This document shows, one piece after another, positions 3,617 to 64,000 of a stretch of DNA of 64,000 nucleotides. Each line of letters begins with the position of its first letter. Position 1 is the stretch's first letter. The stretch is taken from contig CAVVPN010000011.1 in assembly GCA_963750165.1 (NCBI GenBank), positions 2,048,001 to 2,112,000 on the forward strand, written 5' to 3'. The stretch comes from an uncultured Gemmataceae bacterium. GTDB lineage: Bacteria; Planctomycetota; Planctomycetia; Gemmatales; Gemmataceae. The notes below the pieces were generated by a model. That model was not told the DNA's origin and did no database searches. It saw only the letters and a list, made by a program, of their open reading frames with translations. Position numbers and translations under genes: made by a program.

Positions 3617-3759
3617 GAAGTTGTGATGGGATGAGTTGGGTTGCTGTCCTGGTTCGTAGTACCGCCTTGAGGCGGTCTTGCGCCTGACTGATCGTGGTTG
3701 CAACGACTACAATAGGCCCGTGCCATTTCGATCACACTGATCGGCAAGGGGGTATACGC

Positions 3760-14350: not shown

Positions 14351-15112
14351 CTAGATAACAGGCTTCAGAGACCTGCCGCGATTCCGGCGCACAAGGCCGG
14401 TCACGATCAGCAAAGCGCCCCCGATGCTCGCCAGGACCAGCGCGGACGGGGTCGGGACCACGGGACCGCCGCCACCGGGGCCCGGAAACGCCTGCTGGCT
14501 GTTAGTGAACGCCACGGAAGATTGCTCGGTCGTGGGAAATTCGTTTGGCATTCCGTCGAAGAGAAAGGTGAAATGCCCTCCCGGATCAGCCGCAGAGGTG
14601 TATCCGTCCACCGGGTTGTTGTCGGCACCCGTAATATCGATGTTGTACGAACTCGAGGTCGTAATCGGAAGGTAGGACAGGTCGTAGGTCAGCGTGCCCA
14701 CGTCATAAGATCCTGCGGCAAGACCAAATTGGAACGGGTAGTTTTTTCCGGTAACCGGGTTCACATTCGGCGTGTCAGAAACCTGAAACAACGAGCCAAA
14801 TTGCTGCGTTGTCCAACCTCCCTGACTGGATGACTGCAAGACGGTCGAGTTCAGGTTAAAGCTCCATGCGCCATAGTCACCGTTCGGCGACAGCACGAGA
14901 CTACTGGCGCTCACGTCGATTCCGAAAGTCGATGCCTGGAAGCCCGTATCGGCCGGGGTGGTGCTGAACGTGAGATACACCTCGAAGCTGACCGTGTTCC
15001 CCGAGACGGCTGCCGTCCCGAGGGAGAAGGTGGCAAGACCGGCCGCGCAAGGCTGAACCCCACACAGCACGCCTATGACGGCAGCGCACCAAAGCAAGAT
15101 GGAGGAACGCAT
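14351..15112 (-). CDS. PEP-CTERM-type (VPTP variant) exosortase-sorted surface protein
   Basis: Signal peptide MRSSILLWCAAVIGVLCGVQPCAA; C-terminal VVPTPSALVLASIGGALLIVTGLVRRNRGR (PxP motif, TM, basic tail). Confidence 0.8.
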   Translation of the reverse strand: MRSSILLWCAAVIGVLCGVQPCAAGLATFSLGTAAVSGNTVSFEVYLTFSTTPADTGFQASTFGIDVSASSLVLSPNGDYGAWSFNLNSTVLQSSSQGGWTTQQFGSLFQVSDTPNVNPVTGKNYPFQFGLAAGSYDVGTLTYDLSYLPITTSSSYNIDITGADNNPVDGYTSAADPGGHFTFLFDGMPNEFPTTEQSSVAFTNSQQAFPGPGGGGPVVPTPSALVLASIGGALLIVTGLVRRNRGRSLKPVI

Positions 15113-15441: not shown

Positions 15442-15520
15442 AGGAGGCGCCGAACAACAACTTCGTAGGACGGCTCTCCAGAGCCGTCCTACTCTTGGAA
15501 GTTGTTGTTCGGCGCCTCCT
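15442..15520. repeat. Nested inverted repeat: perfect 23-bp outer arms enclosing a GTAG-initiated REP-like palindrome; may act as terminator or RNA stabiliser
   Basis: AGGAGGCGCCGAACAACAACTTC (15442-15464) pairs with GAAGTTGTTGTTCGGCGCCTCCT (15498-15520). Inner GTAGGACGGCTCT-CC-AGAGCCGTCCTAC spans 15465-15492. Confidence 0.85.
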
Positions 15521-16164
15521 TATGAAAACCACACCTGGCCGAACAGGTTTTTTCCTACGGAAGCCCGTCGTACTTCCTCGATCCCCGCAGCAGAAGAGTC
15601 CTTCCTGAGTGCGTTCACGTCTCGATCTTGTTGCTGCAGCTCCTGTTCGATGAGTTCACGCACTGCCGCAATCTCGGAGGGGTCAGGGCCGCTCTCCTCC
15701 TTGAGATCGTTCAGGAGGACGCCGTGTTCATCCAGCAATAGTTCAAGAAGGTCGAAGTTCCTGCCCGAGAGGAGATGTGCATAGCCAACGGCCCGCTTTT
15801 CAACTGCGCCAAGCAGATCCACGATTGCGGTTGCGATGGTATGAGCGACTGCGGACGATGGACCTCCAGTATCTTCTACTTCCGGCTCTCCCGCTGCCGA
15901 CGAAATGAGTAGCTGCCGGAAAGGCGTTAGCGACTCGGTAACAGACAGAGACGTGTCATTTAGCACGTGCTGCCAGGCGGCATCCAAATCGAGACGAAGT
16001 TTACCCTGCCAATCGACCATCCACGGCACACTCCGCACGGCTCGTTGAAAAACGGGCCATTGTCGTTCGGTGCAGGCCAAGGCAAAGGCAAAGGCGGCAT
16101 TGGCACCCATCCCAGCCAGCGCACGTTCAACATCTTTCAGGTGTTGAACAATTCTCTTGAACAT
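15520..16164 (-). CDS. Candidate cognate immunity protein (helical, DUF416/YjaG-like N-terminus)
   Basis: 214 aa. Starts 3 nt after the toxin stop, with a GGAGGAGG RBS inside the toxin 3' end. FAFALACTERQWPVFQR resembles DUF416-like proteins. Acidic, and visibly lower in GC than the giant gene body. Confidence 0.7.
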   Translation of the reverse strand: MFKRIVQHLKDVERALAGMGANAAFAFALACTERQWPVFQRAVRSVPWMVDWQGKLRLDLDAAWQHVLNDTSLSVTESLTPFRQLLISSAAGEPEVEDTGGPSSAVAHTIATAIVDLLGAVEKRAVGYAHLLSGRNFDLLELLLDEHGVLLNDLKEESGPDPSEIAAVRELIEQELQQQDRDVNALRKDSSAAGIEEVRRASVGKNLFGQVWFS

Positions 16165-16167
16165 GTC

Positions 16168-16600
16168 TCAGCCTCCTCCGATGGGCCTGGTAATTTGCCC
16201 GTGGACAGATTCTGTTCCCGTGATGTTGATGACTCCTGCTGCGTTCTGCCGAGCCTCGCATGCGGTGCAGGCGTAGTGGGTACACGCCTGCCGTGCCCCT
16301 TGTGCTTCACTTCCCAGGTATTGAATAGCACGAGCTTCGGCGTGGTTTCCCGCCAATCCAGCGGCATTGCCTCCTGTCGTCCCCCTGACGAACTCCACAC
16401 CCTCGCCGAAAATCTCGGTAGCCCTGGCACGGGCCAGAACGCCAGGAACTTGTCGGGCCTGGCTCACGACCACTCGACCCGTTGGAGTGACCGTGACGGC
16501 GATCGGAACACCGGTTACTCCGTTCGCCCCGAAAGCGGCGTTGTGGATGCTGTCGGTGGCGGCCTGGAGTTCTGCATTGGTCCACTGGAAGGGTGTTCGT
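16168..16600 (-). other. C-terminal deaminase-like toxin domain (HxE...CxxC)
   Basis: WTNAELQAATDSIHNAAFG...PIAVTVTPTGRVVVS...GNHAEARAIQYLG...THYACTACEARQNAAGV; His codon at 16344-16342, Cys codons at ~16269 and ~16260. Confidence 0.75.
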
Positions 16601-19600
16601 ACTGCTGGAGCAGCATTCCCCGCGGCAGCTCCCCCCTCGGCAGTCTGCAGCGCCCCCCGTTCGGCGGCGCCCGGCAGTTGCGCCCCTTCCCCGGCCGCCC
16701 GTTCGGCGGCGCCCGGCAGTTGCGCCCTTCTTGCGCCGCCGCCTGCTCGACAGCGGCTGGCACTTGCGCCCCTTCCTGCGCCGCCGCCCGCTCGACGGCG
16801 CCTGGCAGCTGCGCCCCTTCCTGCGCCACCGCCTGCTCACCGGCCCCGACCACTTGCGCCCCTTCCTGCGCCACCGCCCGCTCACCGGCCCCGACCACTT
16901 GCGTCCCTTCCTGCGCCACCGCCCGCTCCACCGCCGGCAGTTCGCTGCTCACCGCCGCCGCCACCGTCGGCCGGGCCACCGCGCTCGCTTCCGAGGTGAC
17001 GGCGGCCGTTTCACTGCTCACGGTCGCCACCTCCGCCGTGGCCGTGGCGGCCCTGGCGGAGGCTCGCGCGGACGCGATCCCGATGCCGGTCAGGCCGACC
17101 AGGTCGATCCCAACGTCCACTACCGTAGCGGCCGTGTCGCTGCCAGTCGCGGCTCTGGTGATATCGTAGGTCAGCGTATGCGTCTGCTCACCGGAGATCA
17201 ACTGGCGGAGGCCCGCCTGCGCGTCGTCGATGCCCTTGAGGGCAACCGCCCCGCCGAAGAAGATGCCCACGCCGGTTTCCGCCGTGACCGCGGCGAAGGT
17301 CACTCCGGCGAAGGTCTGCATCACCCCCCCGACGAATTGCATGGCGCCGAAGACACGCGTAAAGAAGGTGCCGAACGGGTTCCCCCCCTGGGGTTGATTC
17401 TGGAAGTTGTTAAAGTTGATCCCGCTGTGGACGACGAGACGGTAGGACTCGCCGGAGTCGGTGGAGTCGTTGTGAACCAGCACCGCCGCGCCGCTCTCCG
17501 GCAGCACGACGAAGTAAGTGTGGTGCGCCTCGACGTGCAGGTTGTAGACCGGCTCCACGTCGCCGTTGGCGAACAGGTCCGTCAGCACGGCCCAGCTGGC
17601 GTCCGGCGTCCTCAGTTCGTCGCCGATGCGCAGGTCGGCCGCCATGACCCAGCCGCGGCCGCGGACATAGAACGGGTGGCGGTAGGTTGCCCGCACCACG
17701 TCGGCGCCGACGTGCAGCGTCAGGAGCTGGGCCGGCGCGTTGTGGAACGCCCGCGCCACCCGACACGGCTCCGGCGCCGCCAGCGGGTCACCGTCCGGCG
17801 CCGCCAGCACCAGGTCGCCCGCCTGCACCTCCTCGATCCGCTTCGCGCCGCCGTCCGCCATCAGCACCAGTGTTCCGGCGGCGAAGCAGTACTGGTAGAC
17901 GAGTTGGTCGCCCATCCCCGCGAAGGCGTCCAGCGACGCCGCGCCAGCGAGAGACCACCCACTGCCCAGATCGCCCAGGCTCGCCGCCACCGAGTCGCGC
18001 GTCAGGGCGTTGGAAAGCGATCCGGACCCGGGTTGAGATTGCGCGGCGATCTGCGTGACCGTCGCCGACCACGGCGCCGCCACGCCGCCCCCCGTCGGGA
18101 TGGTTGGCCCGCTGCCCCAAACCAGGGGCGCGCCGACCGGCGCGAAGTCGAGGCTGCCCGTCGTGCCCGTCCCCTGGTTGCTCGTCTCGACGTAGTGCTC
18201 CAGCAGATCGTAGCGCGAGTTGCCCGAGGCGGTTTGGGTCAGGGCGCCGTCGAGGTAGTTGCCGCCTTGCGCCAGACTGAGCGAGGTGCTCCCCGTGGTT
18301 GCGACCGTGTTCCCGCCGCGCGTCTCGGAGCGGTTGTAGTTGCCGTTCACCGAAGTGGTCCGGGTGAAACCGCCCGTCTGGGTGTTGCTCGACTCCACGA
18401 CGGTCGATCCGTCGGTCCCGGTCACCGTCACCGAGTAGGCGCCGCCCGAGTCGGTCCCGGTCTGGGCGAGCGAATACACGTCGCTGCCGTTGGTGGTCGT
18501 TTGGTAGCTGCCGCTGATGGTGTCTTGCGACTCGGTGGACGTGTAGGTGTTCGTGCCGCTGCCCACCAGGTGGTAGGGGTTCAATCCCGCAGTCAGGTCC
18601 TGCGTGAACGAGTAAGTGTCCGTGCCGGTGGTGTTGACGCTGTTGGTGCCCGTGACGGTGTTGCCCGTGCTCGTCGCGTGGCTGACGTCGGTCGAGGTGC
18701 CCGCATAGGTGAACGGCCCAGACCCGCCGGTCCCGCTCTGGGTCACGGCGGTCGTCGTCGTCGTGTCCATCGTGTTCGACCCCGACCCCGTCACGCTGTT
18801 GCCGCTGACGCTCGACGAAGAATCGACCGTGGTGACGACGTGAACGGTGAACGAGGTCGTGAGGTCATTGCTCGCCGACGATTGGTCGTCGGTCACCGTC
18901 GAAGTGCCGGACGACGTACCGGTGTACGCGCCGGTCAGGTTGTTCCCGGAGTTCGATTGACTCTCCGAGTCGCTCGTCGTCTCCGTCAGAGTGAAGTTGC
19001 CCGTCGGGACGCCGGTGACGGCGCGCGTCGTCGTGCCGTCGTCGGTCGTCTGCACGGCGCTGGTGAAGTCCCCGGTGACGTTGTTGCCCGAGCCGGTGGA
19101 GGTGTCCGTGGTCGTCGTGGTCGAGTTCAGGGTGTAGGGGTTGCCGCGGTTGCCGGTCTCGCTGTCCGTGGTCGTCGTGCTGTCGCTCCCGGTGCTGGTG
19201 TAAGCGCCGGTGACCGTGTTCTCCGTTTGCTGCTGCGTCGAGTTGCTGGTGGTGGTGTCGGTGCTCGTGTCGCTGCCGTCGCTGTAGGTGGTGCTCTGCG
19301 TCACCACGTCGCTGTCGTTCGTCGTCTGCGAACTGGTCATCGCCCCGGTCAGGGTGTTGCCGGACGACTGCGAGTTCGTCGTCGCGGTGTCGGTCTCGGT
19401 GCTCGTGTAACTGCGAGTATCGATCGTCCCCGTTTGCGTGTGGGTCGTGGTCTGGGTCTGGGTGGCCGTCTGGCTGTCGGCGCCGGTGATGCTATTGCCC
19501 GACTCGGTCCCCGACGAGGTGGTGGTGACGGTGTTGGTGTCGGTCAGGTTCTCGCCGGTGTTCGTCTCCTGCCACGACGAGCTGAGGGTGTCGGTGCCGG

Positions 19601-22600
19601 ACGATGTGGTCGAGAACGCGCCCGTGACGCTGTTGCCCGACTCAGACGACTGGGAGTGCGACGTTTCCGTGTGATTGTCGCTGGAGGTTTGCGTCTGGTT
19701 CGTGGTCGTGCCGCTGACGGTCGCCGTCGTGTCCGATGTGGTCGTATCCGTGAGGGCGCCGCTGACAGAGTTGCCGCTCTGCTGGTCCGTCGAGGTCGTC
19801 GTCGCCGTCTGCGAATCGGTCTCCGTGGAGGTCTGGTTCGTGGTGGTCTGGTCCGTCGTCATCGACCCCGTCGTGGTCTGCGTCGTGCTGAAGTCGCGCG
19901 TGCGGTCGCTGCCACTTCCCTGGCTGGTTGTGGTCGCCGTCTGGGTCTGCGTCGTCACTACCGTCAGCGGACCGTTGGTCATGGTCTCGTTCAGAGACTC
20001 ATTGATCGTCGAGGTGTCGGTCGTCTGGTAGGCGCCTGTCTGGCTGTTGCCCGAAAGGGTGTCGCTCGACGTCGTGGTCGTTGTCCCCGTCAGCGTGCGC
20101 GACATCGTCTGGTTCGTCTCGTCCTCGGTGAACGAGGAGGTCGAGGTGCCCGTGTCCGACGAGCTGTGGACGCCGGTGATCGAATTTGCCGTCCCCATGG
20201 AGGTGCTGCTGCTCGTGTCGGTCCCGTCCGACGTCACCGTGTCCGTTTGGTTGGTGTCGGTCTGGTGACGGTGGGTCGTCCCGGTGTTGGAGTCCTGGGT
20301 CGTCGAATCGCCGGTGACGGAGTTGCCCGTGACGGTGCTGCTGTCGTGGGTGCTGTCGGTCGTCGTGATGACCGAGGTCAGGGGATTGTTGGTGTCCGTC
20401 TCGGAGTTGGTGTCCGTGCTGTCGGTCGCGCTGGTCGTGGTGTACGCGCCGGTGATCGAGTTGCCCGACGACGAGGTGGTGCCGCCGTCGCTCGACGAGG
20501 TGGTGATGGCCACGCTCAGCGTTTGGTCGCTGTCGGACTCGGTCCCGCTGGAGGAGTCCGCGAAGGTGTCCGATGACGAGAACGCGCCGGTGATGGCGTT
20601 GTCGGTGCTCTGGGTCATGTCGGTTTGAGTCCCGGACGAGCTGGCCGTCACAGTTATCGTCAGGTTCGTCTCGGTGCGCTGCGAGGTCGTGGCGGTCGTC
20701 GAGGTGGCGGCCGTCGTCGTCGTGCCGAGCAGATCGTTGCCCGAGCCGGACGACGAACCCGTGGTCGAGGAGGTGTCGTGCAGCGTCGCCGTCTGCGTCA
20801 GGTAGGTGAAGGTCTGGTCCTGCGTGGAGTTGGCATTGTTCGTCCCGCTGATGGTGAAACTGCCGGCGATGCGGTTGCCGGAACGGTTCGACGTGTCGCC
20901 AGTGGTCGAGGTGAGCGTGATCGTGCTGACCGGGCCGATCGCGTTGACCTCAGTGGTCGCCTGCGAAGTCGAGTCGGTCGCCGTGACCTGGTAGTCGCCG
21001 GTGACGCTGTTGCCCGTCTCGGTCGAGGACGTGTTCGACGACTCGGTGCCGGTGGTGGTGATGATGTTGACCTGGTTGGTGTCGGTCTGCGACAGGTTGT
21101 CGGAGCTGCTGCTCGTCACCGTGGTCGAGTAGGCGCCGCTGTTGGTGTTGCCCGACGAGTCGGTTTGCGACGTGCTCTGGCCGCCGGTGCGGTGCGCCGT
21201 GCTGGTCAGCGTCTGGTTGGTGAGCGTATCGTCGGTGCTGAAGGTGGACGTGGTCGTGGACGACGAGGTGAAGTCGCCGGTGACGTTGTTGCTGGTGCCG
21301 GTGGTCGTGGTCGTGCTGCTGGTGGTGCCGGCGTCCGTCCTGGTCTCCGTCTGGTTGGTTTGCGTGGCGGACGAGGTCGTGGTAGCGGTCTCGGTGCTCG
21401 CGGTGGTGCTGGCGCCGGTGACGCTGTCGCCCGAGTCGGTGGACCCGGCCGTGTAGTCGGTCGTGGCCTGTGATGTCAGGCTGCGGGTCTGGTCGGTGTC
21501 GGTCTCGTTGGTCTGGGAGTGCCCGCCGGTGGTGGTCGCGGTGGACGTCCAGGCGCCGGTGAGCGAATTCGAGGTGGCCTGGGTCGTGGTGCTGCCGGAG
21601 TCGGTCTGCGTGACGAGCGTGTCGAGCCCCTGGTTGGTCGAGTGGTCGGTGCTGGTCGAGGATGTCGCGGCAGTGACCGTGCGGTCGTCGTCGCCGGTAA
21701 CCGAGTTGCCGGTGGCGGTGCCGCTCGAAGTGGACCCGGACGAGGAGGTGATCGTGTCCGTCAGGGGGCCGTCGGTGGTCGTCCGCGTCAGGCTCTCGGC
21801 GGTCGTGCCCCCCAGCGTGTTGTTGTAGTCGCCGGTGACATCGTTGCCGGTGCTCGTCGTGTTGCTGGTCGTGGTGGTGGTGTCGGCGTAGACGGCGGTG
21901 AGCGCACCGTTGGTGTCGGTGCCGCTGACGGTCGTGGTCTGCGTCGTCGCGCTGGTGGTCGTGAAGTCGCCAGTCACCGAGTTGCCCTGCCGGCTGCCGC
22001 TGGTGCCCGTGGTCACCGTCTTTGCATCCTGAGTCTGGAGCGTCTGATCGGCAACCGTTTCCGCGCGCACGTCGGTCGAACTGCCCTGCGTCTGCTCGTT
22101 CGTGTCGCCGGTAATCGTGTTGTCGTTGAACGTGGTCGTCGTGGACGACGTGAGCTGGCTGATGGTCGCCGAGACATGCAGGTCGCTGATGTCGTGCGTC
22201 TGTGTGCCGCTGCCCGTCGTGGCCGTTGAGGAAGTGCCGGACGAGTCGCCCGTCAACGAGTTCCCGGCGGCATGGTTGTGAGTAGTCGTCGTCGAGTGCT
22301 CGGTGAGCACGCCGGTCGCGCCGGAGTTGGTCGTGGTGTCGGTGCTTGCGACGGTCGTCGTGGCGGAATCGTCATTGACAAAGTCGCCGGTGACCTGGTT
22401 GCCGCTGCCGCTGCTGGTGTCGGTGGTCGTCGCCGTTGTCGTCTGCGTGTCGGTGAGCGTCTGGTTGGTCGTGGTCACCGTGCTGCTGGTCTGGGTGTTC
22501 GACGTGCCGTCGCTGGTGAAGTTGCCCGCGATCTGGTTGCCCGAACTGCTGCTGTTGGAGTTGCTGGTGCTCGTGCCGGTCGTGGTGACCGTCTGCCCCT

Positions 22601-25600
22601 GGTTGTGCTGGGTATCGGTGCTCGTGGTGGTGCCGTTGGTCTGGTCGGTGTTGCTGAAGTCGCCGGTGACGCTGTTGCCCGACGCGGTGGTTGTGTCGGT
22701 GCTGGTCGTGCTGGCGGTCGAGGTGTCGGTGAGTGTCTGATTCACCGTCGTCTGGTTGCGGCTGACGGTGCTCGTCACCGTCCCGCCATTCTGGTAGTCG
22801 CCGGTGACGGAGTTGGACGTGCCGCTGCTGTTGCCGTCGGTGTGGCTGGTGATGGTGACCGTCTCGGTCAGGCCGTGGTTGGTGTCGGTCTCGTCGCGCG
22901 TCGAGTCCGACGTGGACTGGCTCTGCTGCTGCGTGTCGCCCGTGATCGAGTCGCCCTGGCTGGTCGTCGTGGACGTGCCACTATCGGTGACAGTGGCTGT
23001 GCTGGTCTGTGTCTGGTTGGTCGTGTCCACGGTCTTGGTGTCGCTGCTGGTGGTGTTCTGGGTCGCGTTGAACGAGCCGTCGATGGAGTTCCCGGTATTC
23101 GTGGCCGTGGTGGTGACGGTCGCGTCGGTCGTCGTCGTGGAGGTCAGCGTCTGGTCGGCGACTCCCTCCACGTCGTCGGTCGTCGTCGTGGATGTCTGCG
23201 TGGTGTCGAAAGCGCCGCTGTAGGTGTTGGAAGTGCTGTCCGTGTGACTGACGATATGGGACGTGACGTTGCTGTCGGTCGTCTGGGGGTCGTTGGAGCC
23301 GGAGCCTGTCTGCGTCGCGTCGCTCGTCGAGTCTTCCGTGCTGGTGAAGTCGCCGGTGACCGAGTTGCCGTTAGACTGGTCCTGCTTGGTGCCGGTCACG
23401 TCGAGGTGGCTGGTGAACGTCGAAGTCTGGTTGGTGTCGGTCTCGTCCTGCGTCGTCGTCGAATCGACCTGCGACGAGGTGGCGCTGGCGCCGCTGAACT
23501 GATTGCCGGACTGCATCCCGTCGGAGGTCGTCGCCGTGGCCTGGGTGTTCACCACGGTCGTCAGGGTGTTGTTCGTGGTGGTGTCGTCGCGCGTCGTCGT
23601 CGTCTGAGAGTTGAAGGTGCCGCTGAAATCACCGGTGACCGAGCTGCCGTCGTTCTCCGCGTGACGTGTGTTGTCCATCGTGACATCGACGTTCTCGGTA
23701 ACAGACTGGTTGGTGGTCGTCGCGGTCTGGTCGGAGTCCTGGGTGCTGTCGTCCGTGGTCGAGAACTCCCCGGTGACACTGTTGCCGGAGTCGGTCAAGG
23801 TGTCGTCGGTCGTCGTGGACACGTGGTTCTGGGTGCTCACGGTCAGGTTGGTGGTCGAGTCGTCCCGCGTCGTCTCGGTGTCGCTCGTCTGCGTGGCCGT
23901 GAAGTCCCCGGTGATCGAGTTGCCGCTGTTGGTCACGTCCTGGCTGGTCGTGGTGGTGATGGTGGCGGTCCCGGACTGGGTCTGGTTGCTCGATGTCTCG
24001 TCGCGCGTCGAGCCGGCGTCGGCGTGCTGGGTGGTGGTGAAAGCGCCCGTGATGGCGTTGCCCGTGGTGGTGGTCGTCGTGACGTTGTCGCCGGTGCTCT
24101 GCGTGGTCCCCGTCACGGTGAGCGGGCCGTTGGTGGTGGTGTCGGTGCCGTCGGACTGTGAGGTGTCTGTCGCGTCGGTGCTGAAGTCCCCGCTGATCGA
24201 GTTGCCGGTGGTGGTCGTATCGGTGTGGCCGGTGGTCGTCATCGAGCTGACGACTTCCTGAGTCTGGTTGGTCGCGTCTTGGTCGGTGGTGGTGGTGTAG
24301 TCGTTGGTCTCCGTGCGGGAGTAGCTGCCGTCGATGGTGTTGCCGTCGGCGTCAGCGGTCTTGTCGGCGGTGGTCTCGACAGTCGTGTCGGCCGAGGTTC
24401 CCTGGTTGGTGATGTCGTGCTCGGTGGTGGTGTCGTCGGACTCCGTTTGCGACTGGGAGAACTGGCCGCTCAGCGTGCTGCCGCCGCCGGTCCACTGGAT
24501 CTGGGTGGTGCCGCTGCCGGTCATGGTGTCGGTCTGCTGGCCGTTGGTCGTCGTGCCCTGCGACGACGAGGTGTTGGTGGTGATGCCGTCGTAACTGTAG
24601 TTGCCTCCGAGGGTGTTGCCGCTCTTCTCCCAGTCATCAACCTCGGTCGCGTCGGTGGTCGAGTTGGAGGTCTGCGTCTGGTTGGTGCCCGTCACCACGG
24701 TGTGCGTGGTGGTGGTCGTCAGCTGGATGATGTCGAACGTACCGTCCTTCTTGTTGCCGGTGTTTTGCACGTTGCCGGTCGTGCTGGCGTCGCCGACCTG
24801 CTCGGTGTGGCTGCCCTGGTTGTCCTGGGTCGCGTCGTCGTGGGAGGTCGAGTTGAGGCTCTCCTGGTAGTCGTAATTGCCGGCGTAGAGGTCGCCGCTC
24901 TGGGTGAGATCCTTGTCCGCGGACGATGTCACGGTGTCGGAGGTCGTCACCGTCTTGTTGGTCCCGTCGGTCTCGGTCGTTGCGTCGGTGTGCGAGGTGC
25001 CGTTCAGGGAGTAGCTGCCGCCCTGGGCGTTGCCGGTGTTGGTCTGGTCGTAGGTGGTGTGGATGGAGCTGGTCTGGGTGACATCGGACGACTGGTCGGT
25101 CTCGTGCCGCGTCTGTTCCACGTCGGTCGTCGCGTCGGTCATCAGGGTGAACTGACCGGTGAGGTCATTGCCCGTCTTGTCGGCATCGGTGGTGACGGTG
25201 GTGCTGCCCGTGACGTTCGCCGACATCGGCTGGTTGACCTCGTCCCGGTTCACGATGTCCGAGGTCGTCGTCGTGGTCATGCTCAGGGTGTAGGCGCCGG
25301 TGATGAGGTTGATGGTCGCCGCCGTGGTCTCCTGGTCGAGCGTCGTGTTCAGCTCCTGATCGTAGCTGAAGGTGCCGTTGGAGCCGGACTCGCTGACATC
25401 GGTCTGCTGGTTCAGCTGGCGGGTGCGCTGCACGATGCCGGTGGTGTAGTCGCCCGTCTCCTCGATGTTGTCGGTGCTGTCGCTCGTGCCACTGGACGTG
25501 TAGTCGCCGATCAGCGCCTGGTTGGTCAGCTGGGCGGCCAGCTGGCCGGAGTCGGCGCGGATGAGGCCGTCGATTTCCCCCTCCAGGCTGGCATCGACGG

Positions 25601-28600
25601 TGCGGTAGCCCGTGCGCGTGTATTCGGCGTCCTCCGTGGTCATGGAGTTCCAGGTGAACTGGCCGTCGGTGTAACTCTTGGTCTCCTGGAAGGTGGACAG
25701 GCCGGTGGTGTCGCCCGTGTAGGTGTCGGCGATGTCATCGGACTTGATCGGGCCGTCGTTCAGCTGCTGGCCATCGAGGTTGGCGGCGTACTGATGCACG
25801 ACGAAGCCGCTCGCCGAGTAGCCGGTCGCGTCGAACTGGCCGGTGGCGTAAACGTTGTCGAAGTTCAGGATGCCTTTCTGCGCCTTCACCATCTGGGACG
25901 GGGCGCCCTGAACGTCGCCGTTGACCGTGTCGAGGCCGAACCCGTATTCGTACTGGACCTGGCCGTCAACGGTAGCCGTGGCCGTAAAGTTGCCGGTCGT
26001 GCGGTCCATCGACACGAATTCCTTCAGCCCGACCGAGCCCTGAACATAGCTGTTCACGTAGACCATGCTAGGGTCGTCCAGGCGGTTGATGTCCTCTTCG
26101 CTGCTGACGTTGATGACATCGGCAACCGAGACGACGACGGTGGCCACGTTGTTCCTGGTGTCCTGGATCTGGATGGTGATGTCGTACGGACCTTCGTGCG
26201 CGTAGGTGTGGTCGCCAACGACCTCGTAGAAGCCCGCCGCGAGCTGCGACGCCTGCACCATGCCGGTGCTGGTGTTGCCGTCACCCCAGTTGATGGTGGC
26301 GACGAAGTCGCTGGGGCTCGTGATCGCGCCGGTGGGGATGAACTCGGCCAGGGCGGCCCCGTTGGCGCGCCCCAGGCTCTTGTTGTCACTGACGGAGCGG
26401 CCTTCGAGCGTCACCACCACCTCGCCCCACGCGGGCGGCGGCGGCGTCGCCCGGATGATGGCCTGGCCGGAATCGGTCTGGGCCCAGAACGCCACCTGGC
26501 CGGCGGTGTTGACGGGGTCGTAGGTGCTGATGGCCTGCACCGTCCCCAGCCCGGGCAGCATCTCGCCAATGTTCGCCACGCGGTAGTCGCCGTAGAAGTC
26601 GCTCGACGGTAGGATGCCCGGGGCAGACGAGTCGAAGACGAAACTGGCCTCGTGCAGGCCGTCGCGCACGTTGCCGGCGGAGTCCTGCGCCTGGGCCATG
26701 TACACCACGTTGTAATACTTGTGCCCCGCCAGATCGGCCGCGTAGTTGATCCCCAGGCTGGCGTTGTCATCGATGTGGTCGATGGTGCCGACGCCCACGC
26801 CGTTGACGAGAACCTCGTTGGGGTCGAGGTAGCCGTCGCCCGTTTCGCCGACGACCTTTTCGACCGTGCCCGTCATCGGGTCCATCACGTAGATGCCGTG
26901 GCCCTGCAAGTTGCCGACGAAGGCAATCAGGCTGCCGTCGTCACTGATGGCGGCGTTGGGGCCGACGGCGCCGGGGATGGGCTGGGGGGCGCCGCCGGGG
27001 GTGAAGTATTCGGCGACGCCGTTGACGTTCGCCACGCCATAGCCGTTGTCGGCGAGATGGATCGCCTGGATGTTGCTCACCTGGTTGAGCACCGGCGCGC
27101 CCGGATTGCTAATCGGGTTGGGCGGCAGAATGCCGAGGGTGTTCGACAGGGTGAGCGAGGTCAGAGCGACGTTGCCGAGCTTGCCGTTGACGAGATACTG
27201 GTTGCCGTCGTGCAGGCTGCTGCCCCAGCCCGAGATGGCGAACTGGTCTTTGTTGTTGAGCGAGACCGGCGGCATGATGACCGAGAAGTCGTTCTTGAAC
27301 GAGAAGAGGGCGGTCCCGGCAACCACGCTGAGGTACGCGGCCGGGTTGTTGCGGTAGGGCTGGGCGACCAGCGCCCAGGTCGGATCGACCGGCGAGAAGT
27401 AGACGCTGGCCCACACCGGGTTGAGGATCCAGGCGCGCGGCGGCAGTGTGTACGACGCCGTGATGGCGAAGCCGATGGCACCCGGTCCGATGGCCCCGAG
27501 GACGGCCGAGATGTACATGTCAATGAACAGCGGGTTGCCCCAGGTGATGCCCGCCGCCGACAGCCCCATGTCGCCGACCGCCGCCTGCAGGGGGAGGATG
27601 TACTGGCCCTTGAGCGCGTCGGCTCCGTCCCAGGCCTCCGCGTAGGTGAGTATGGCCGGGGCGTAGGTGAGCAGCGGCAGGCCCAACGGCAGCGAACCGA
27701 TGGCCGTCTGCACGCTCATCTGCCGCTCGGCGAACAACAGGTCGTCATCGTTCAGCGACACGTTCTGGGAGAAGGCCGCCGACGGCACGCCGCCCGTGTC
27801 CGGCGGCAACAGGCCGCCGTTAAGCATTCCCGGGGCGACGAGCGATACGGCGCCGGTGGCCTTGGACCAGACATAGATGCTGTCCACATTGTTGGTCTGC
27901 GTCCCCTGGAAGCCGACGTGCCCGTTGTTGTTGATCGACGGCCCCATGCCGAGACTGTTGAAGCCGTTGCTCTGTTTGGCCACGATGTCATAGTTGAAGG
28001 CCGACGCGCCGGAGCGCACGATCAGCGAGACGACGGGGTCGCCGCCGGTGTCGTTCGGGCCGTGGATTTCGTAGTCGAAGGTATCGACGACATCGATGCC
28101 CTCCCGGGCGAACGTCTGCAGGGCCACCGAGTTGGTGGGGTCGTAGGTCCAGCTGCCGTCCCGGTTGACGTGGTAGACGGCGCCATAGTGGGAGAGGCCG
28201 TCGCCAGAGGTCCACAGCCCCGCCGTCTCGCCGAGGTCGGGCGAGGTGGCGCCGACCAGGAGGCCGTTGGCGGCCGGGACCGACAGCACCTGCGCCGCCG
28301 TCGCCCAGTAACCGCGATCAATGCTGGTGTCGCCGGGCACGGGCGGGTCGTCGGCGCCGATCACGGTGATGTGGACCGTGGCCGTCGCCCGCTCGCCGTA
28401 GGCGTCCACCACCGTGTAAGTGAACGTGTCGGTGTAGGTCTGCCCGAGCGGCAGCCAGGACAGGACGGTGCGCGGGTCATACGTGAAGCTGCCGTCGGGC
28501 GCGAAGGTGACGGCGGCGCCGGCGGCGCTGGTAGCCGCGGACACGGACGTGTCCACGACCAGGTTGGCGCCGTTGGTCACGTCCACGTCGTTGCTGAGCA

Positions 28601-31600
28601 CGCCGGTGGCGGCATTGACGACGAGCAGCACTTCCTTGCTGACGGTGTAGTTGTCGTCGTTGGCGGTGGGCGGGTCGGCCACGCCCGTCACTGTCAGCTG
28701 GGCCGTGCCCGATGTCCGGATGCCCTGCGAATCAACGATCTGGTAAGTGAAGGAATCGGCCAACGACTGGCCCGGCGCCAGAGCGCGGACCTGCGGCACG
28801 GCCGAGTCGTTGTACTGGAAGGTGCCGTCGGCATTGAGCGTCACCGTGGCGCCGAGGCTGCTGGTTACGCTGGCGGCCACTGCCTGGAGCGGCGCGTCGC
28901 CGGGCAGGGCGTCGGGGTCGGTGGCGCCAACCAGCACACTCTGACCGCCGGTGCCGTCCTTGGTGATGCTGATGGTGGCGGTTGTCGGCACGGGCGGCCG
29001 GTTGACCGGGCTCTGCACCACGACCTCGACGAAGCCGGTCGCTGTGGCCCCGTAGGGGTCGGTCACCGTGTAGGCGAACTGGTCGGTCACGCGCTGGCCG
29101 GCGGCCAATGCGTTGAGCGCGGCAACCTGCGTCGGGTCGTACAGGATGTGCCCGTTGACCAGGCTCACTGCCGCCCCGTCGGCACTGGTCGCCGCCACCG
29201 AGGTCAGGGTCAGGATGTCGTTCACGTTCGGGTCGTGAGCAGCGGAGAGCGGCACCGACTGGTCAATCGTGGTCGTTGCGCTGGCCCGCAGGTAGAGTTC
29301 GGGCGTGGACGAACTGGGCACGACGGTGCCGGCCGTCGGCGGCAAGTTGGCGCCCTGGACGACGATGTCGGCGGTCGCGGCGCCCTGGTGGCCCTGAGCG
29401 TCGGCGACCGTGTAGCTGAAGTGATCGACGACCTGTTCGCCCTGGCCGACCCCCTGGAAGCGGTTGCCTGCCGTGTAGGTGTAGCTGCCGTCGGTGTTGA
29501 CCTGGACCGTGGCGCCCCAGGCGCTCAGCGTGTCGGCAGCGACGATGTGTAGACCGCTGCCCACGCCGGCAGCCAGCAAGCCCGCGGCAGCGCTGACGGA
29601 CAGCGAGCCGCTCTGGCTGACGGTGAAGTAACTGTCTGCCGCCGGCCCGTGCAGCGCCGCCGGCCCCTGGACCACCAGACTTTGTGTTGCCGTTTCGCTG
29701 GTGCTGGAGTTGGCCGCCTGGACCGACGCGACAGCGGCGCCGGGCGCCGCCGCCGTGCTGAAGCCGAAGGTGAGTTGCTGCCCGGTGGTCAGCGCCGCGG
29801 CCGGGTCAGCCGCCTGCCAGGTCACACCGCCCGACGAGATCGAGACCGACCAACCCGTGGGGGTGACGAGGGAGTCGAAGGCCGTGCCGGCCGGGGCAGG
29901 CACGGTCAGGCTGTTAATGTCCCAGGCGGCGCCGGACGGGCCGCTGACGGTGAAGGTGTAAGCGTATTCGCCTGCCGTCGCCGGGCCGACCGAAGACGTG
30001 ACGGCCCCTTGCGCCTCAGGTCGAGCGTGAAGACGATATCGGTGACGGCGGAAGTCAGGCCGTGGCTGTCCCGGGCGACAAGGTGCAGGTGGTGCGTCCC
30101 TGCCGACAGCGGCGCGCCGTTGATCTCCGCCAATTGCTCGGCACTGAACGTGAAGCTGCCGCCTTGCAAGTCGGGCAGGACGTTGACCGCCGGCGCCGCG
30201 GCGTCGAAGCCGGCGAGGAAGGATGTCAGCGCGCCCTCGCTGGCCACGGTGCCGCTGACCGCGGGCACGCGCACGGTGGCGCCGCCGACCGACTGGCCGG
30301 TGATGACGGGGGCCATCAACGGCCCGCTGGTGATGGTCAGGCTGTACTGGCTGGTGTTGCCGGCGCTGTCGGTCGCCTGCACCACGAGCGTGTTGGGGCC
30401 GGCGGCCAGCGGCACCTGACTGAAGGTGAAGTTGCCGTTGGCGTTGGCGGTGGTCGTCAGCGACGTGCCCACAATCTGGAGCGTCATCCCGGGGTCGGTC
30501 TGGCCGTCAAGGATGGCCTGCGTGGCCGTGGTGTAGTCGGCGCCCTGGACGGGGTCTTGCAGCGACGCATCGAGGTGGAACACCGGCGTCGCCGGCAGCG
30601 TCGTCTTGACGGTCAGCGTCAGCGCCGGCGTCGGGCTGCTGAAGTTGCTGGCCGCGTCTTCGATGATCGCCGTGATCTGATGAACGCCGTCGGACAGCGG
30701 CGTCGAGACGATCTGGGCAACGCCGGTGGAGATGGCCTGCCCGATCATGGTGCTGCCGTCATAGAAGGTCGCCAGGTCGCCGCGTGCCGCGAAGACGCGC
30801 AGGCTCGGGCTGCTGTAGCGCGTGATGTGCGCGAGCGGGTTGACGCCCGTATTGCTGACGGTGAGCAGGTCGGGGGCCGCGGTGGCGGCCGGCGGCGTTT
30901 CGATCAGGGTGAAGCTCAGTTGCACCGGCGCGGCGACGTTGCCGTCCACGTCGGTCGCTTGCAGCGACAGCTGGTAGGAGCCATCGCTGAGCGGGCCGCC
31001 GAACACCTGGGCCAGCAGGGTCGGCGTCAGGATCAGCTGGTCGCCGTTCATGTCCGACGACACATCCACAAAGGACATGCTGTTGATCGATAGCTGCACC
31101 GAGGCCAGCGGGCTGATGTCGTCGATGACGGCGCGCACCGTCGGGTCGGAGGTCGTCGGCGTGCTGCCCGGGACGCGGCTGGTGTCGTTGACCAACCCCA
31201 GGGTGATGGTGGGCGGCGTGACGTTGTGCATCGTCACGTTGATGGTCGAGGTCGCGGTGTTGCCGGCCGCGTCGGTGTCACGCACGACCAGGGTGTTGGC
31301 GCCGCGGTTGACCGGGACGTTGGTGAGCGTGAAGGCGCCGCTGTTGGCGTTCGCGGTCGTCTGGGCCAGGGTGCCGTCCACGGTCACGGTCGATCCCGGC
31401 TTGGCGGTGCCGTTCAGCGTGATCGCCGGGACGGTGACGTTGTTGCCCGAGCCGTACTCGGCGTGCTGGAGCGTCTGGTCGAGCGAGACGCGCGGGGCGG
31501 TGATGCTGCGAACAACCGTGACATCCACTGGCGCCGTGAAGAAGCCGACGTTGCCCGCTGCGTCCAGCGCCACGGCGGTGTAGACGTAGGTGCCCTCGGC

Positions 31601-34600
31601 GGGCGTCAGGGTGAAGGTGATATTGCCACCGCCCGCGGCGCTGGCGACGGGGAGGCCGTTGGCATAAAGGACAACGGTGGTGCCGGCCTCCGCCTCGGAT
31701 GTCTGGAAGACCAGCGTGCTCGCACGGGTGACGAAGCCGCTGCCGCCATTCGGTACGAGGATGCCGGCGGGCGTTGTCAGTGGCGCGGGGGCGGCAGGCG
31801 GTGTGGTGTCGAGCGTGAACGAGACCGTGCTCACCGGCGAGACGTTGCCGAACTCGTCGGTCGCCACCACGCGCACCGAGACGGGGCCGTCGGGGATAGG
31901 GCCGCCCAGGATCGACACGAGGACCGAGGGGGTCAGCGTGAACGCTCCTTCGACGAGCGACGACAGGCTGCCGACGAACGGCGCGCCGTTGACGCTCACC
32001 TGGAAGGCGACGATGCGGCCGGCGTCGGTGACCGTGCCGGCGACGGTCGGGTTGCTGGTCAGGCCATCGGTCGCGGAGGAGCCGGTGTCGTTGACCAGGT
32101 GCATGCTGACGGCCGGCGGCGTCGTGCTGGCCGTGTGGCTGAAGAAGGTCCCCGACTGCTCGCTGGTGTTGCCGGCCGCGCTGACCGCCTGGACGCGGAA
32201 GAAGTTGGTGCCGTACATGACCGGTACGCCGGTCAACTGGAAGTTGCCGGTGGCGTCCGCCTGGACCGTCTCGGCGGGGACGGCGGCCGTGGTGCTGCGG
32301 TAGAGGTTGACGGTCGCCAGGGGCGATGTCGTGCCCACCAGCTTCACCTGGCTGGCTCCGGGCGTCGGCTCCATGACCGTCCAGGTCGGCTGCACCGGCG
32401 GCGTCAGGTCGATCGTGAACGTCAGCGTCGGCGAGGCGGCGCTGACGTTGCCCGCCACGTCCACCGCTTTGGCGTAGACGGTGTGCGTGCCCGCGGTCAG
32501 CGGGCCGACCTTGGCAGTCACCTGGCCGACGGACGCGATCGGACCGACCAGGCTGCCGTCGAGGTAGAAATCGACCTGGGTGCCGGCGGTGCTGGTGGCG
32601 GCGAGGCTGAACATGGTCTGGTTCGTGAGGTTGCCGAGCTGCTGCGTCCCGGCGGCACTGGTCAGGACCAGACTCGGCTCGGACGGGGTTGCCGGCGTCG
32701 CCGTCAACAGGGTGAGGCTGACCGTGACCGGCTGCGACTGATTGCCGAACGGGTCCGCGGCAACGACGGCAACGGTGTGGGCGCCGTCGGGGAGCGTGCC
32801 GCCCGCGGCCTGGGCCAGCAGAGCCGGCGTCAGCCGGAAGGTGCTCCCGGTCACGGCGGCAACATCGTCCACCTGCGCCAGACCGTCCACCGACACCCAC
32901 AGGTGGGCGGTGGGGTAAGCGTCGTTGATGGCGCCCACGATGGTCGGGTCGGAGGTGATGCCGTCAGACAGGGAGATGCCGGTGTCGTTGGCCAGACTGG
33001 CGGCCACCTGCGGCGGGGTGCTCGTCGGCGCCGGCAGCAGCACGGTGGTCGTCGCCGTGCGTGTGTTGCCCAGGAAGTCGGCGGCCGTCATCGCGAACGT
33101 GGTGGTGCCATACGTCAGCGGCACGTTGGTGAACTTGAAATTGCCACTGTTGTCCGCGGTAAGCTGCTGGCCGGTGGCGAGCAGCCTCACCACGGCGCCG
33201 GGCGCCGTCACGCCGGCCAGGTCGATGGACGAGCCGGTCGCCTGGTTGCTGCTGGGCGACACGGCGGATTCGGGAGCCAGGCCAAACGAGGAGATGACTG
33301 GGGGCGTGGTGAGCACGGTGATCGTCAGGGGCGTGCTCGGGGCGCTGACGTTGCCGGCCACGTCCGTGGCGGTCATGGTGAAGGTGTAGGTGCCGTCGCC
33401 GAGCAGGCTGACGTTGATGCTGAAATCGGCCGTGCCCTGCGTGGAGGCGATAACGCTCCCCTGGGCCGTGCCGCTGCTGTAGAGCGTGACGAGGCTGCCG
33501 GGCGTCGCTGTCGTTTCGACGGTGAAGGTCGATTTGTTGATGTATCCCCCGGTGATGGGGCTGCCGCCGGGCACCAGGATCACCGGCGTGGTCGGCGCCG
33601 GCGGCGGGGTCGAGAGGACGTTGAAGTCGATCTCCTGGGTCGGCGTCACGTTGTTGAAGCGGTCGGCAGCGGACAGCACGAACCGGTGCGGGCCGTCGGT
33701 CAGCGGCATGCCCGTCATGGTGGCGATGTCGGTCAGGTTCATCATGAGCCCGCCGGACGAGTTGATGTCGGACAGCAGGTTGACGGGGGCGGACCCGTCC
33801 ATCGACAGGGTGAAACTCATCACGCCGCTGGGATCGGTGACGGCGGCCAGGAACTGCCCGCTGGGCTGCACAAAACCGTCGGGGGGCGCGGAACTGCTGT
33901 TGGCCGGCATGACCGCCGCCACGAGGGTCGGCGGGTAGACATCGGTGGTCTTGCCCAGCTGGCGGTACGCGAGCAGATAGTCGTTGCGGTTGATGACGCC
34001 GTCGCCGTTGAGGTCGTACATCGGGTTGTAATTGGCACTCCCCCGCGTCGCGCCGTAGCGCTGCGTCAACTGGGTAAGGTCCGTTGAAGTGATGTAATCG
34101 GTGCCCAGGTAGTCACCGGTCAGCTGCCAGAACGGCAGCGGCAGGTAGTCGGCGGAGAAGAACGAGCCGCCGGCATCCATCGTGACGGCGCGGTTGGCGG
34201 CGCTGGCCACGGCCGCCTCGCGGATCTGCACCGCGAATTGCCCGTCGCCGGGGAGCAAGCCATCGACGTTGATGGTCAGCGTCCACGTTTGTTCGTTGTA
34301 CGAGTAATTTTTGGCCGGGATCGTCATGGCCTGGCCGCCGGCGCTGACCACCTGCACGTCCAGCACCTGATCGTCGATCACGACATCCTGGTTGAACTGC
34401 ACGGCCAGCGTGTAAATGTGCGAGCGCTGCACGGCCCCACCGTTGATGACAAACGACTGCACACTGACGGGCGTGCTGCCGGCGGCGGCGTTGATGGCGA
34501 CCGGCAGCGACGCCGACACCGACGCCTGGGCGCCGGTGGCCTGCACGGTGGTGGTGGCCGTGACGGTGAGCGTGAAGGAGTCGGCGTACCCGGCCGGCGG

Positions 34601-37600
34601 GTTGAAGGTGAGGCCCGACAACATGGCACGCGTCAGCCGGTAGTGTCCGACACTGACGATGGTGCCGGCGGAGAGCGTGGCGCCGGCCGGCAATCCGGAG
34701 ATGTCCACCGTCACCAGATCCGAGTTGACCGTGTCCTGCGGCACCGCGGTGATGCTCAGCGGGATGGGCGTGTCCTGGTTGCCGTTGGCCGGGGCGACCG
34801 TGAGGGTCGGCGCCACGGCGACCGGCGTCACCGTGACGGTGACCGGCGTCGCGTTGGAAAGCAGGCCATCGATGTTGCGCACGCGGTAGTTGAAGGTGTC
34901 GGTTCCTCGGAAGTAAGTGGCCGGCGTGTACAGCACCTGGCCGGTGGTCAGGCTCACCGTGACCGTGCCGTGCTGCGGGGGCGTGGTGATGACCACGGTG
35001 GTCGGGTCGAGGACGGACCCGGGGGCGGTGTCGTTCTGAAGCACGGCGACGCTGACCGCGGTGTTCTCCGGCGTCGTCACCACGTCGGCGTTGGCCACGG
35101 GGTTGTGCAGCGCGTCGGCAGTGACGAGGATGTCGTCGAGGGTCACCTGGCTGCCGGCGGCGCCGAAGCCGAGCAGGTCGAACGACAGGACGGCCAGTGT
35201 GCCAGGCGCGACGCCGCTAATGTCCAGTTCGATCACGCGGGAGCCAGTGTTTTGGCCCGTGTTGACGATCGTGACCTGCGGGCTGCTGAAGACGGTGCCG
35301 TCACTCTGGACGTTGAGGAAGGCGTCGGTGTTGCCCAGGCCGGCCGCCGTCTGCGTCAGCGGCTGGAGCGAGTGGGCGTCGAGCAGGGCGGCCTCGAAGG
35401 CGTCCGGCGGCTGGTTGGCGGCGGTCCCCAGTGCGGCCGAGACAATCGTGAAGCGCAGCGTGGTCACCCCGGACGGCACGAAGAACGGCTGCGTCAGTGC
35501 CGTGCTGACCTGGCCGCCCTCCTGGAGCGTCGCCGCGCCGCTGGCGACCGTTACCTGGCCGCGCTCCGTCCAGCCGAAGCCGGACTGGCTCGGGTCCGTG
35601 ACGGTGAATTGGCCGTTGGTGATGCCGAAGCCCGGGTTGGTGAGTGGGGCCAGCGGGATCGGGGCGGGCGTGGGAACGTTGGGCGGACTGCTGCTCTGAA
35701 TGGGGTGCAGCGACTGGCCCGAGGCGGTGCCGCCGGAACCACCGCCGGTCGTGCCGCCGCCGGTCGTGCCGCCGCCCGAGGTCGGTGTCCAGACGGTGCC
35801 GTTGCTGCGGGCGAAGTAGGCCGGGAAGACTGGCGCTGCGCTGTCGGCGGTGAAGCCGTAGTTGTACGCCAGCAATTGACGGTCGGCGGAGTCGATGGCG
35901 CCGCTGGCGTCGAGGTCGGCGGCGAAGCTGTAGTTGGCATCGCCCGAGAGGCTGCCGAAGGCGGTAGCCAGTAGCGCGCTATCGCTCCCGTCCACCTTAC
36001 CGTCGGCGTTGATGTCGCCGGCCACATCGACGCTGACGGTGTAGCCGCCGTGGTCGGTCTTCGTCGCGCCGAGGACGCGCAGCAGATAGGTGCCGCCGGT
36101 CGTGACCTGGAACAGGGCGACGGTGCGGTTGCCATCGACGTAACGCGCCAGCGGCTCAAGGCCGACCACGTCCGGCGTCGCCGCCACGAACAGGCTGGCG
36201 TCGCGCGCAATGACAACACGCACGATGACGCTGCCGGTGTTGGTGCTGTGGACTTCGGCGTCGCTGAGGGAGAAGGAGTAGTCCTGCTCGCCGCCGCGGG
36301 GCATGGTCTGCGTGATGGGATGGCCATCGAACTGCAGGGCATCGCCGAAGTCGCCGGTAAGGGGGACGAGCTGGGGCGGCTGTCCCGGCAGGTAGGCCGC
36401 GCTGACGCCAGCTGGGCGGGAGGCAACGCTGAGCGTGCCAAGCGTCGCGTCGTAGCCATAGCGGTCCAGCACGCCGCGCGTGCTGCTGACCACCTCGGCG
36501 AGCTGGCCGGCGGCATCGTACACGTAGTTCACCGTCTCGCCGTTGGGGGCCTGGATGGCGGCGATGCGGCCCTCGGCGTCCTTGACGAAGCGGATGGTCT
36601 CGCCGTCCGCCGCCGTGATGCCGCTGTCGCTGACGTGGAGCACGTGGCCGGTGGCGGTGATGGTCTCGGCAATGCCGTTGGCGCCGATCAGCGCCTGCGA
36701 CCCGTCGGGGGCGGTGAGCGTGTAGCCGGTCGGCCCGAAGAACGGATCGGACGGGTTGTACGCCCGGCCGGTCGCCTGGTCGTAGTAATCATTGCCGCCG
36801 CGGACCAGCAGCGTCCTGTCCGAGGCCAGCTGGTAGCTGACGCCGGCATCGGCCCGCCAGGCGGGGTAGTAGTAGGTCAGCTCGCTCGGCTGGCCGGGCA
36901 GGTTCACCGCGACGGGCTCGAAGGTGTAGCCGGCGCGGCTGCCGTCGGGCAGCGTCAGGTAAAGCCGCGTTCCCTGCTGCAGCGCAGGGTAGTCGCCGAG
37001 GGCCTCACGCCCGGTGAGGGTGAGGTTCGTCTGCAGGGCGACATCGCGGTTGACCAGGCTCCAGCCCGGGCCGAAGGTCGCGACCGCGGCAGGCGCCACC
37101 GAGTTGTACGCGCGCGTCACGCTAACGGTGGCGCCGTCCAGCGTGACGGTCAGGTCGGTGTCGGTGACCTGGACCGCGCTGGGCTTGGAACTGGTCTGCA
37201 CCTCAATGTCGGTTGTGGTGACCGACTGCCGGCCGGCGATGTCGGTGGCCGTCAGGCGCAACTGGTAGAAGCCGTTGGGCAGCGTGCCCGGGTCGATCTG
37301 GGCCAGGGCGCCGTCATTCACCGGAGTGTTGCCGCTCGCGATGGTGGTACTTGTCGCGCTTCCCAGGGTCGCGATGGCCAGCGACCAGGAGTCAAGGTTG
37401 CTGCTGGCCACCGTGCCCATCACGCTGGTGACACCGGCGAGCGGCGCCAGAGCCAACGAGGGATCGAGCGCCACCACGGGCGCCGTCATGTCGGTCGGGT
37501 CGAGCACCTTGAGGACAATCGTGGTGCTGCCGGTCAGCCCGTCGGCGTCGGTGGCAACCGCCACGAGGGTCATCTTGCCCGGCGTGCCGGCGGTGACCTG

Positions 37601-62903: not shown

Positions 62904-64000
<1,097 letters not shown>

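Follow-up and report, generated by a model that had tools for sequence, protein, structure and literature searches.

The stalk of CdiA and related filamentous-haemagglutinin (FHA) toxins is a parallel beta-helix. In RHS toxins, as described in the available text of two reports, the containers have an acidic interior and the proteins are cleaved at a DPxGL motif (PMC8636562, 10.1101/2024.02.26.582050). In planctomycetes, the available text of PMC5177795 leaves the roles of giant genes largely unassigned. Here, we analysed a stretch of 64,000 nucleotides from an uncultured Gemmataceae bacterium (contig CAVVPN010000011.1, positions 2,048,001 to 2,112,000; hereafter the window), in which a giant gene on the minus strand contains a long array of Thr/Ser-rich 46-residue repeats. 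We lean towards reading this array as the carrier module of what is likely a polymorphic toxin, in which a ribbon of beta-hairpins would coil edge to edge into a hollow tube that holds or channels the C-terminal toxin.

An old array of 46-residue repeats

The array is located on the minus strand within an open reading frame (ORF) at 29903..16515 (4,462 aa), whose residues ~1484-3900 correspond to window positions 25454-18200. It comprises ~53 units of 46 aa and spans ~2,400 aa. Fifty units were registered by hand, of which 39 are exactly 46 aa long, and ~3 shorter terminal units follow. The autocorrelation has maxima at lags 46, 92 and 138, and at lag 46 the identity outside Thr and Ser is 0.100, against 0.031 +/- 0.003 in 200 shuffles (maximum 0.040). 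Across the family, 1,185 of 1,475 unit-to-unit spacings are exactly 46. Conservation in 39 units is concentrated in the turns (G1 34/39, N2 34/39, G6 38/39, F/Y8 26/39, N26 29/39, Q27 22/39). The array is rich in Thr (30%) and Ser (16%) and poor in Pro (0.4%) and in Phe, Trp and Tyr (3.2% together). Thr alternates strictly with a mixed residue, at odd positions 9-25 and at even positions 30-46. As the units share on average just 29% identity at the protein level and 47% at the DNA level (maximum 61%), the array is old. The 138-bp array was not detected by Tandem Repeats Finder, and a search for a higher-order duplication period among the units found none.

Most of these features had been proposed in a first-pass annotation made from the sequence. 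Its Thr/Ser-rich repeat of 46 residues, with ~50 units over ~2,400 aa, was recovered by both autocorrelation and hand registration, and its two conserved turn motifs, near absence of Pro, scarcity of large hydrophobic residues and old, DNA-diverged copies are all borne out by the values above. The ~20-residue runs of Thr, Ser and Asp that it described hold for the richness in Thr and Ser but not as plain runs, given the alternation. Similarly, the array does lie upstream of a HINT domain, as claimed, but not directly adjacent to it, a core of ~45 aa and a linker of 73 aa standing between them. The annotation had recognised no named repeat family, and we found no match to the repeat in Pfam, NCBIfam, PHROGs or PDB sequences (one at E 0.17), while its only ESM Atlas matches, both below 0.9, were two clusters without a name. 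In the literature searched (including the available text of PMC3482391, PMC5177795 and PMC11573180), a scope outside which supplements and most subscription papers lie, we found the repeat nowhere described.

Distribution and organisation of the family

We then searched for relatives of the array with a profile of three repeat units and with a profile of the core that follows it. The repeat profile gave matches in 21 of the 251 Gemmataceae genomes searched, none in a phylum-wide sample of 400 genomes (0/400, i.e. none beyond its own genome), and 126 matches among 1.84 billion representative proteins. The core profile was found in 25 of the 251 Gemmataceae genomes, with up to 11 matches per genome (<=11), in 4 of 312 genomes from other families of the class Planctomycetia, and in 35 proteins, one of them named Fimbriiglobus ruber. 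Other members bear the names Stieleria, Rhodopirellula, Pirellulales, Planctomycetales or Planctomycetota. Among 20 proteins looked up, all those with an organism name are from planctomycetes, 14 having no name. Scans of contig collections with a single core sequence returned one locus in each. Among the 126 repeat matches, the core is present in 42 and the sequence ends inside the repeat in 54. The remaining 30 are, by eye, out-of-frame fragments or proteins with a divergent core or a HINT or toxin-like tip, and none of these 30 shows a clear non-toxin C-terminal domain.

The members share the same order, namely an Ig stalk, a PKD-like domain, the array, the core (DRY..G.[LM]D[YF]SP.G.PF.DP), a HINT domain or a variable tip, and a small gene. 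Sequence similarity stops immediately past the core, beyond which the tips are unrelated. Pfam assigns some of them to WHH, AHH, RES, SsdA_C, Gln_deamidase_2 or DUF2380, most being without family, and PT-HINT was detected in 24 proteins out of 58 in one set and in 6 out of 14 in another. Several loci also carry tandem short cassettes composed of few repeats, a core and a new tip, then small genes (orphan cassettes). GH-E was matched by one of the four cassette tips scanned, and SMI1_KNR4, DUF2262 or ankyrin by 3 of the 10 small genes scanned after tips. With its conserved carrier, unrelated tips, small downstream genes and orphan cassettes, the family is organised as polymorphic toxins are, and it is likely to be a polymorphic-toxin family of Planctomycetia.

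Two proteins of different subtypes (P0004, Asp-type, and P0087, HINT-type) apparently have, by eye, the same WHH-nuclease tip and C-terminal region, which suggests a tip exchange between subtypes.

The core and a putative release site

The core was surveyed in 110 anchored sequences, 10 unanchorable sequences and 12 duplicates having been dropped. Of these cores, 72 have the Asp of PF.DP, and none of the 72 has a HINT domain within 110 aa. The Asp is missing from the remaining 38, and in 31 of them HINT follows directly. Among the 7 left, classed as lacking both, one was mis-anchored and does have its Asp. This pattern in the sequences fits a replacement of Asp-Pro cleavage by HINT and falls short of demonstrating it. 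A point against it is that all 31 HINT-proximal members group in one clade of a quick tree of 93 rows (SH-aLRT 98), so that on this tree the loss of Asp with a proximal HINT is a single clade event.

Core matches are particularly numerous in one genome (G415, contigs C2, C4, C6 and C12), with 10-11 at several loci, four copies being without Asp and without proximal HINT. In two further proteins (P0049 and P0155), a divergent core with neither Asp-Pro nor HINT is followed by an HNH-like tip. By eye, the core (RY...G.N.L.Y...DP) could pass for a remote homologue of the RHS core. This kinship was not supported by an hhalign comparison of 23 cores with 6 RHS cores, a shallow set, which gave a probability of 0.1%.

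Local fold of the repeat

The fold was investigated by AlphaFold2 and by covariation, two separate methods that rely partly on common sequences. Model 1 covers the last 17 units and the core (alignment of 20 rows), and model 2 covers 16 internal units (47 rows). Both consist of 20-residue strands connected by turns of 2 and 4 residues, with pLDDT of 85 and 91, respectively, and no helix in the array. Covariation among 1,136 units supports an antiparallel register of i+j=55 within hairpins (mean Z 10.7, against 1.2-3.8 at 12 other registers). Between hairpins the mean Z is 4.4 (3.8 for the next best register), and for same-position, parallel stacking it is 0.5. This last value rules out a parallel solenoid like that of insect antifreeze proteins. 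An antiparallel meander of 20-residue strands, in which a Thr/Ser face lies opposite a mixed acidic one, is thus a predicted fold with strong support.

The Thr face contains 62% Thr or Ser, while the mixed face contains 18% Gly or Ala and 19% Asp or Glu, with an aromatic residue at position 8. When position 8 is aromatic, the next unit begins with Gly1 in 652 of 687 units (95%), against 149 of 366 (41%) otherwise. In outer-membrane barrels, according to the available text of PMC5542473, such an aromatic-glycine pair faces the barrel interior. The sheet is therefore likely to be curved, with the mixed face inward.

The first-pass annotation had envisaged a continuous sheet of long antiparallel hairpins that could coil into a hollow cage or needle, and had called for structure prediction of repeat windows and for a repeat profile tested against HINT and toxin tips. 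The continuous sheet finds support in the register and in the hairpin sheet of both AlphaFold2 models. The hollow cage or needle has indirect support from the sequences, but the models resemble a gently curved ribbon, which the structural fits do not show as closed. The co-occurrence with HINT or toxin tips was found across members. The repeat matches no known family, it is not predicted to be disordered, and it does not occur mainly in toxin-less proteins.

Evidence for and against a spiral tube

A ribbon coiled as a spiral would have its edges in contact at one fixed unit lag. In the covariation between distant units, 26-4, 26-6 and 26-5 score highest among the 2,116 position pairs at lag 7, and 27-5 does so at lag 8. 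The 26-6 coupling recurs when HINT-type proteins (13 vs 4.1, p 0.001) and all others (7 vs 2.4, p 0.002) are taken separately, with no signal at lags 6, 8 and 9. The window offers a conserved example, in which Tyr26-Leu27 in unit 32 (automatic count) is accompanied, seven units on, by Arg4 and the absence of Gly6, relatives having Arg4-Phe5 at this place. A spiral also implies that the free edge of the last turn needs no docking motif. In 51 proteins, the NQ-type turn occurs in 10-29% of the last 9 units, against 41-78% of units 10-24, while loop A persists. In addition, the array modules (PKD to core) of 25 proteins are between 1,054 and 3,728 aa long, a 3.5-fold range that fits an open-ended helix. 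From these data, a narrow spiral tube appears somewhat probable, and a location of the cargo inside it is a tentative proposal, to which we give a little under even weight.

Beta-strands usually have a right-handed tilt. Combined with the direction of the coupling, the hairpin register and L-chirality (checked numerically), this tilt places Thr outside, in agreement with the aromatic-glycine argument. The lengths of the 25 full modules cluster at ~1,800 (4 proteins), 2,660-2,880 (9) and 3,180-3,340 aa (4), which may reflect kinship or preferred turn numbers.

Several observations weigh against this tube. After collapsing similar units, the lag-7 signal is 14 vs 6.1 at 50% identity (p 0.002) and 6 vs 3.8 at 42% (p 0.13), and ~7 of 20 lag-7 clusters look like one ancestral event. 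Lag 11 scores too in the HINT set. The mirror test of edge-motif loss at the N-terminus was mixed, and the C-terminal boundary of this loss is at 9 units, against 7-8 predicted. The correlation between tail and array length (rho 0.62 overall, n 20) is 0.49 (n 9) and -0.07 (n 11) within types. The AlphaFold2 models, whose shape was judged from structural fits, correspond to a wide or gently curved ribbon. Model 1 has as top match the ApoB100 beta-belt (Z 18.4, rmsd 12.9, 399 aligned), and model 2 fits best the SprA barrel (rmsd 3.4-4.0 Å over 272-301 residues), which we take to have 36 strands. Finally, six frameshifts (three +1 and three -1) disrupt the window's copy of the gene, and a crude count of frame junctions on the large contigs of this genome gives ~2-2.7 per 100 kb of long ORFs, lower than in the giant gene.

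In the strongest competing reading, the toxin system is the same but the sheet is an open ribbon or wide ring (~30-36 strands per turn), acting as a spacer or as a flat Thr-rich binding surface. We regard this as unlikely. Both models match sheets of wide curvature (ApoB belt, SprA) and the lag-7 coupling is not significant at the strictest collapsing, but the alignments behind the models are shallow (20 and 47 rows), the coupling is edge-specific, at lags 7-8 and in two clades, and the NQ turn is lost on one side near the C-terminal end.

Alternatively, the tube could be a rigid, protease-resistant arm with HINT and tip lying beyond its end, a layout like that of the teneurin C-terminal domain or of the CdiA filament. 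The lack of a link between array and tail length within types would agree with such an arm, and a folded HINT (~140 aa) may not fit a lumen of ~22-25 Å. Teneurin C-terminal domains do sit outside their shell in the available text of PMC8636562. However, the array has an acidic face of the lumen type, as in RHS containers (available text of 10.1101/2024.02.26.582050), and a conserved core exactly at the border to the variable tip, which makes the arm quite improbable.

A single-chain beta-barrel pore inserting in the target membrane would account for the long hairpins and for the aromatic-glycine pair of outer-membrane barrels, but neither face is hydrophobic (Val, Ile, Leu and Met plus Phe, Tyr and Trp amount to 12% of the Thr face and 21% of the mixed face), and we consider it very improbable. 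A disordered, possibly glycosylated Ser/Thr linker is the least credible explanation, since despite 46% Thr and Ser and few hydrophobic residues, the array combines 0.4% Pro, exact spacing of 46 in 1,185 of 1,475 cases, cross-strand covariation and pLDDT of 85-91.

We return to the carrier tube. With moderate support from the coupling, turn B of unit i would dock on loop A of unit i+7 or i+8, giving 14-16 strands per turn. For 52 units, the tube would have a C-alpha diameter of 31-34 Å and a length of 335-375 Å, its Thr face pointing outwards and its acidic face towards the lumen. By analogy with RHS toxins, the giant stalk would be secreted and bind a neighbouring cell, and the core would plug the far end of the tube. 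HINT would cut the tip free here, whereas members without HINT would likely be cleaved at their conserved Asp-Pro. The producer cell would be protected by the downstream protein. In its fullest form, which we put forward with less than even confidence, the array would be a single-chain hollow beta-needle of variable length (~3 nm x <=45 nm; 14-16 strands per turn), Thr outside and acidic inside, storing its own toxin or conducting it to a neighbour. Polymorphic toxins would then have a third repeat scaffold in addition to the RHS cage and the CdiA filament, one that evolved independently in Planctomycetia and has an Asp-Pro release site of its own.

The family provides a function class for some planctomycete giant genes and adds an unnamed repeat and core to the polymorphic toxins. 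If the tube exists, its fold would be new, a single chain forming a water-soluble beta-tube and the number of repeats setting the length. It would also be relevant to the sheltering of contact-dependent toxins, or to their transport across a gap, and offer a template for protein nanotubes. The shortest natural modules (~1,100 aa) and the intact genes of 12,400-13,200 aa in relatives make the proposal testable.

The giant gene and its neighbours

The giant gene consists of six large minus-strand ORFs (62502 to 16515) and a small tip ORF, overlapping at the frame changes. Its features, and the gene that follows, are listed from the N-terminal side.

16168..62502, minus strand: one giant gene of ~46.3 kb and ~15,400 codons, in seven reading-frame pieces (ORFs, Pfam and junctions)
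26118..26426, minus strand: last PKD/Ig-like domain (WGDG..HTY..EGPY), constant N-terminal neighbour of the array (27-row alignment; fold name read from the motif)
25455..26117, minus strand: irregular lead-in strands without canonical turn motifs (alignment)
18264..25454, minus strand: array of ~52 predicted 46-aa beta-hairpin repeats (loop A G-N-x-[IV]-T-G-x-[YF]; turn B T-[ND]-Q), with a Thr/Ser face opposite a mixed acidic one
18105..18263, minus strand: last hairpin and conserved core (RY.LL...G.LD[YF].P.G.P), the terminal Asp of the family being absent in this HINT-type member
17886..18104, minus strand: low-complexity linker of 73 aa
17466..17885, minus strand: PT-HINT domain (CF...HN), aa 4013-4146 (Pfam PF07591, E 6.9e-14)
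16974..17465, minus strand: hydrophobic pre-toxin region (weak DUF4225 match, below cut-off)
16656..16973, minus strand: 15-aa (45-bp) tandem repeats, with a frame change inside
16168..16578, minus strand: deaminase-like tip (G-N-H-A-E ... C-x-x-C) in another frame than the upstream ORF (weak dCMP_cyt_deam_1 match, E 0.004-0.012, below cut-off)
15520..16164, minus strand: likely immunity gene of 214 aa, DUF416/Imm6-like, starting 4 bp past the tip stop codon (ESM Atlas)

Pfam detects Ig, PPC, CARDB, Big, cadherin and dockerin domains in the stalk, and the N-terminus (RRRR..LEER.LL) is presumably of planctomycete type. Pieces 3-6 align in order with unbroken ORFs of 13,123 aa (genome G878) and 13,173 aa (G903), and a third genome (G859) has an unbroken ORF of 12,447 aa.

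The tip has three close homologues, no match in the PDB and two marginal matches in 300 genomes. One homologue (P0162, 74% identical) has, by eye, an RHS-like N-terminus, and the His of HAE is replaced by Asp in two of the three. The downstream protein of 214 aa has no Pfam or NCBIfam match. Its ESM Atlas scores are 0.95 to clusters in which 17-28% of members have DUF416 and 0.91 to a cluster in which 18% have Imm6. Imm6 is paired with YwqJ deaminase toxins, whose motif is Gx[CH]xE, in a listing in the available text of PMC3239186. Like them, the tip has Gx[CH]xE and CxxC and is followed by a DUF416/Imm6-like gene, but neither window protein has a YwqJ or Imm6 match in Pfam, the tip having just a weak generic deaminase match. 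We take this likeness of motifs as a lead only.

An RHS-like stretch of ~270 aa (36383-37195, minus strand; Pfam RHS_repeat E 5.6e-4, below cut-off), followed by a dockerin, lies in the middle of the giant gene and is possibly a remnant of an RHS module replaced by the new array. Six RHS cores are present elsewhere in the source genome, as well as a second giant gene of ~78 kb in five overlapping ORFs (G000:C4:647458-725388, minus strand). Downstream of the immunity-like gene, 14351-15112 (minus strand) encodes a secreted-looking protein of 253 aa without Pfam match, whose tail we take to be PEP-CTERM-like. On the other side, 62940-64000 (plus strand) presumably holds the 5' part of a catalase-peroxidase-like gene that diverges from the giant gene.

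Comparison with known systems

Like polymorphic toxins in general, the array family has a conserved N-terminal carrier and hypervariable C-terminal toxin domains, a putative immunity-type gene directly downstream and orphan tip cassettes, and the window gene has a domain of the processing peptidase type (PT-HINT) before its tip. The best structural matches are the ApoB100 beta-belt and large outer-membrane barrels (SprA, CymA, MtrB; Z 14-18), but this likeness is one of geometry only (identity 3-12%, Foldseek TM <=0.19 by query), and the array has no lipid-facing hydrophobic face. A tubule of Omnitrophota (10.1101/2023.11.21.568195), compared by description and not by sequence, resembles the proposed tube in being, by prediction, an antiparallel spiral with a hollow centre, ~1,500 aa long and part of giant proteins of the PVC superphylum. 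Unlike the array, it has regular exterior alpha-helices, and the section describing it reports no toxin tips. CdiA/FHA toxins share with the family a long repeat stalk, a pre-toxin region, a HINT domain or variable tip and an immunity gene (available text of PMC3482391). The array differs from them by its lack of same-position covariation (Z 0.5), and the pieces of the window gene have no haemagglutinin or TPS match in Pfam.

The RHS/YD-repeat toxins (T6SS Rhs, BC component of Tc/ABC) are similar in their beta-hairpin repeats in a continuous curved sheet, core with Asp-Pro, variable tip, immunity gene and orphan modules. The array is distinguished from them by its 46-aa hairpins, 20-residue strands, Thr-coated face and 3.5-fold length range, and by the absence of a YD motif. 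It has no RHS match in Pfam or NCBIfam, including the RHS-associated core TIGR03696 (NCBIfam), whose aspartyl protease motif is DPxG. No RHS shell appeared in the top rows of six fold searches apart from two weak teneurin rows (Foldseek ranks 44 and 46 only, TM 0.04-0.05), which is still compatible with kinship. Judged from its sequence, the array would work like an RHS toxin without being RHS by repeat or core. The repeat and core form a real, apparently unnamed family, a variant of the polymorphic toxins for which a tubular fold is plausible.

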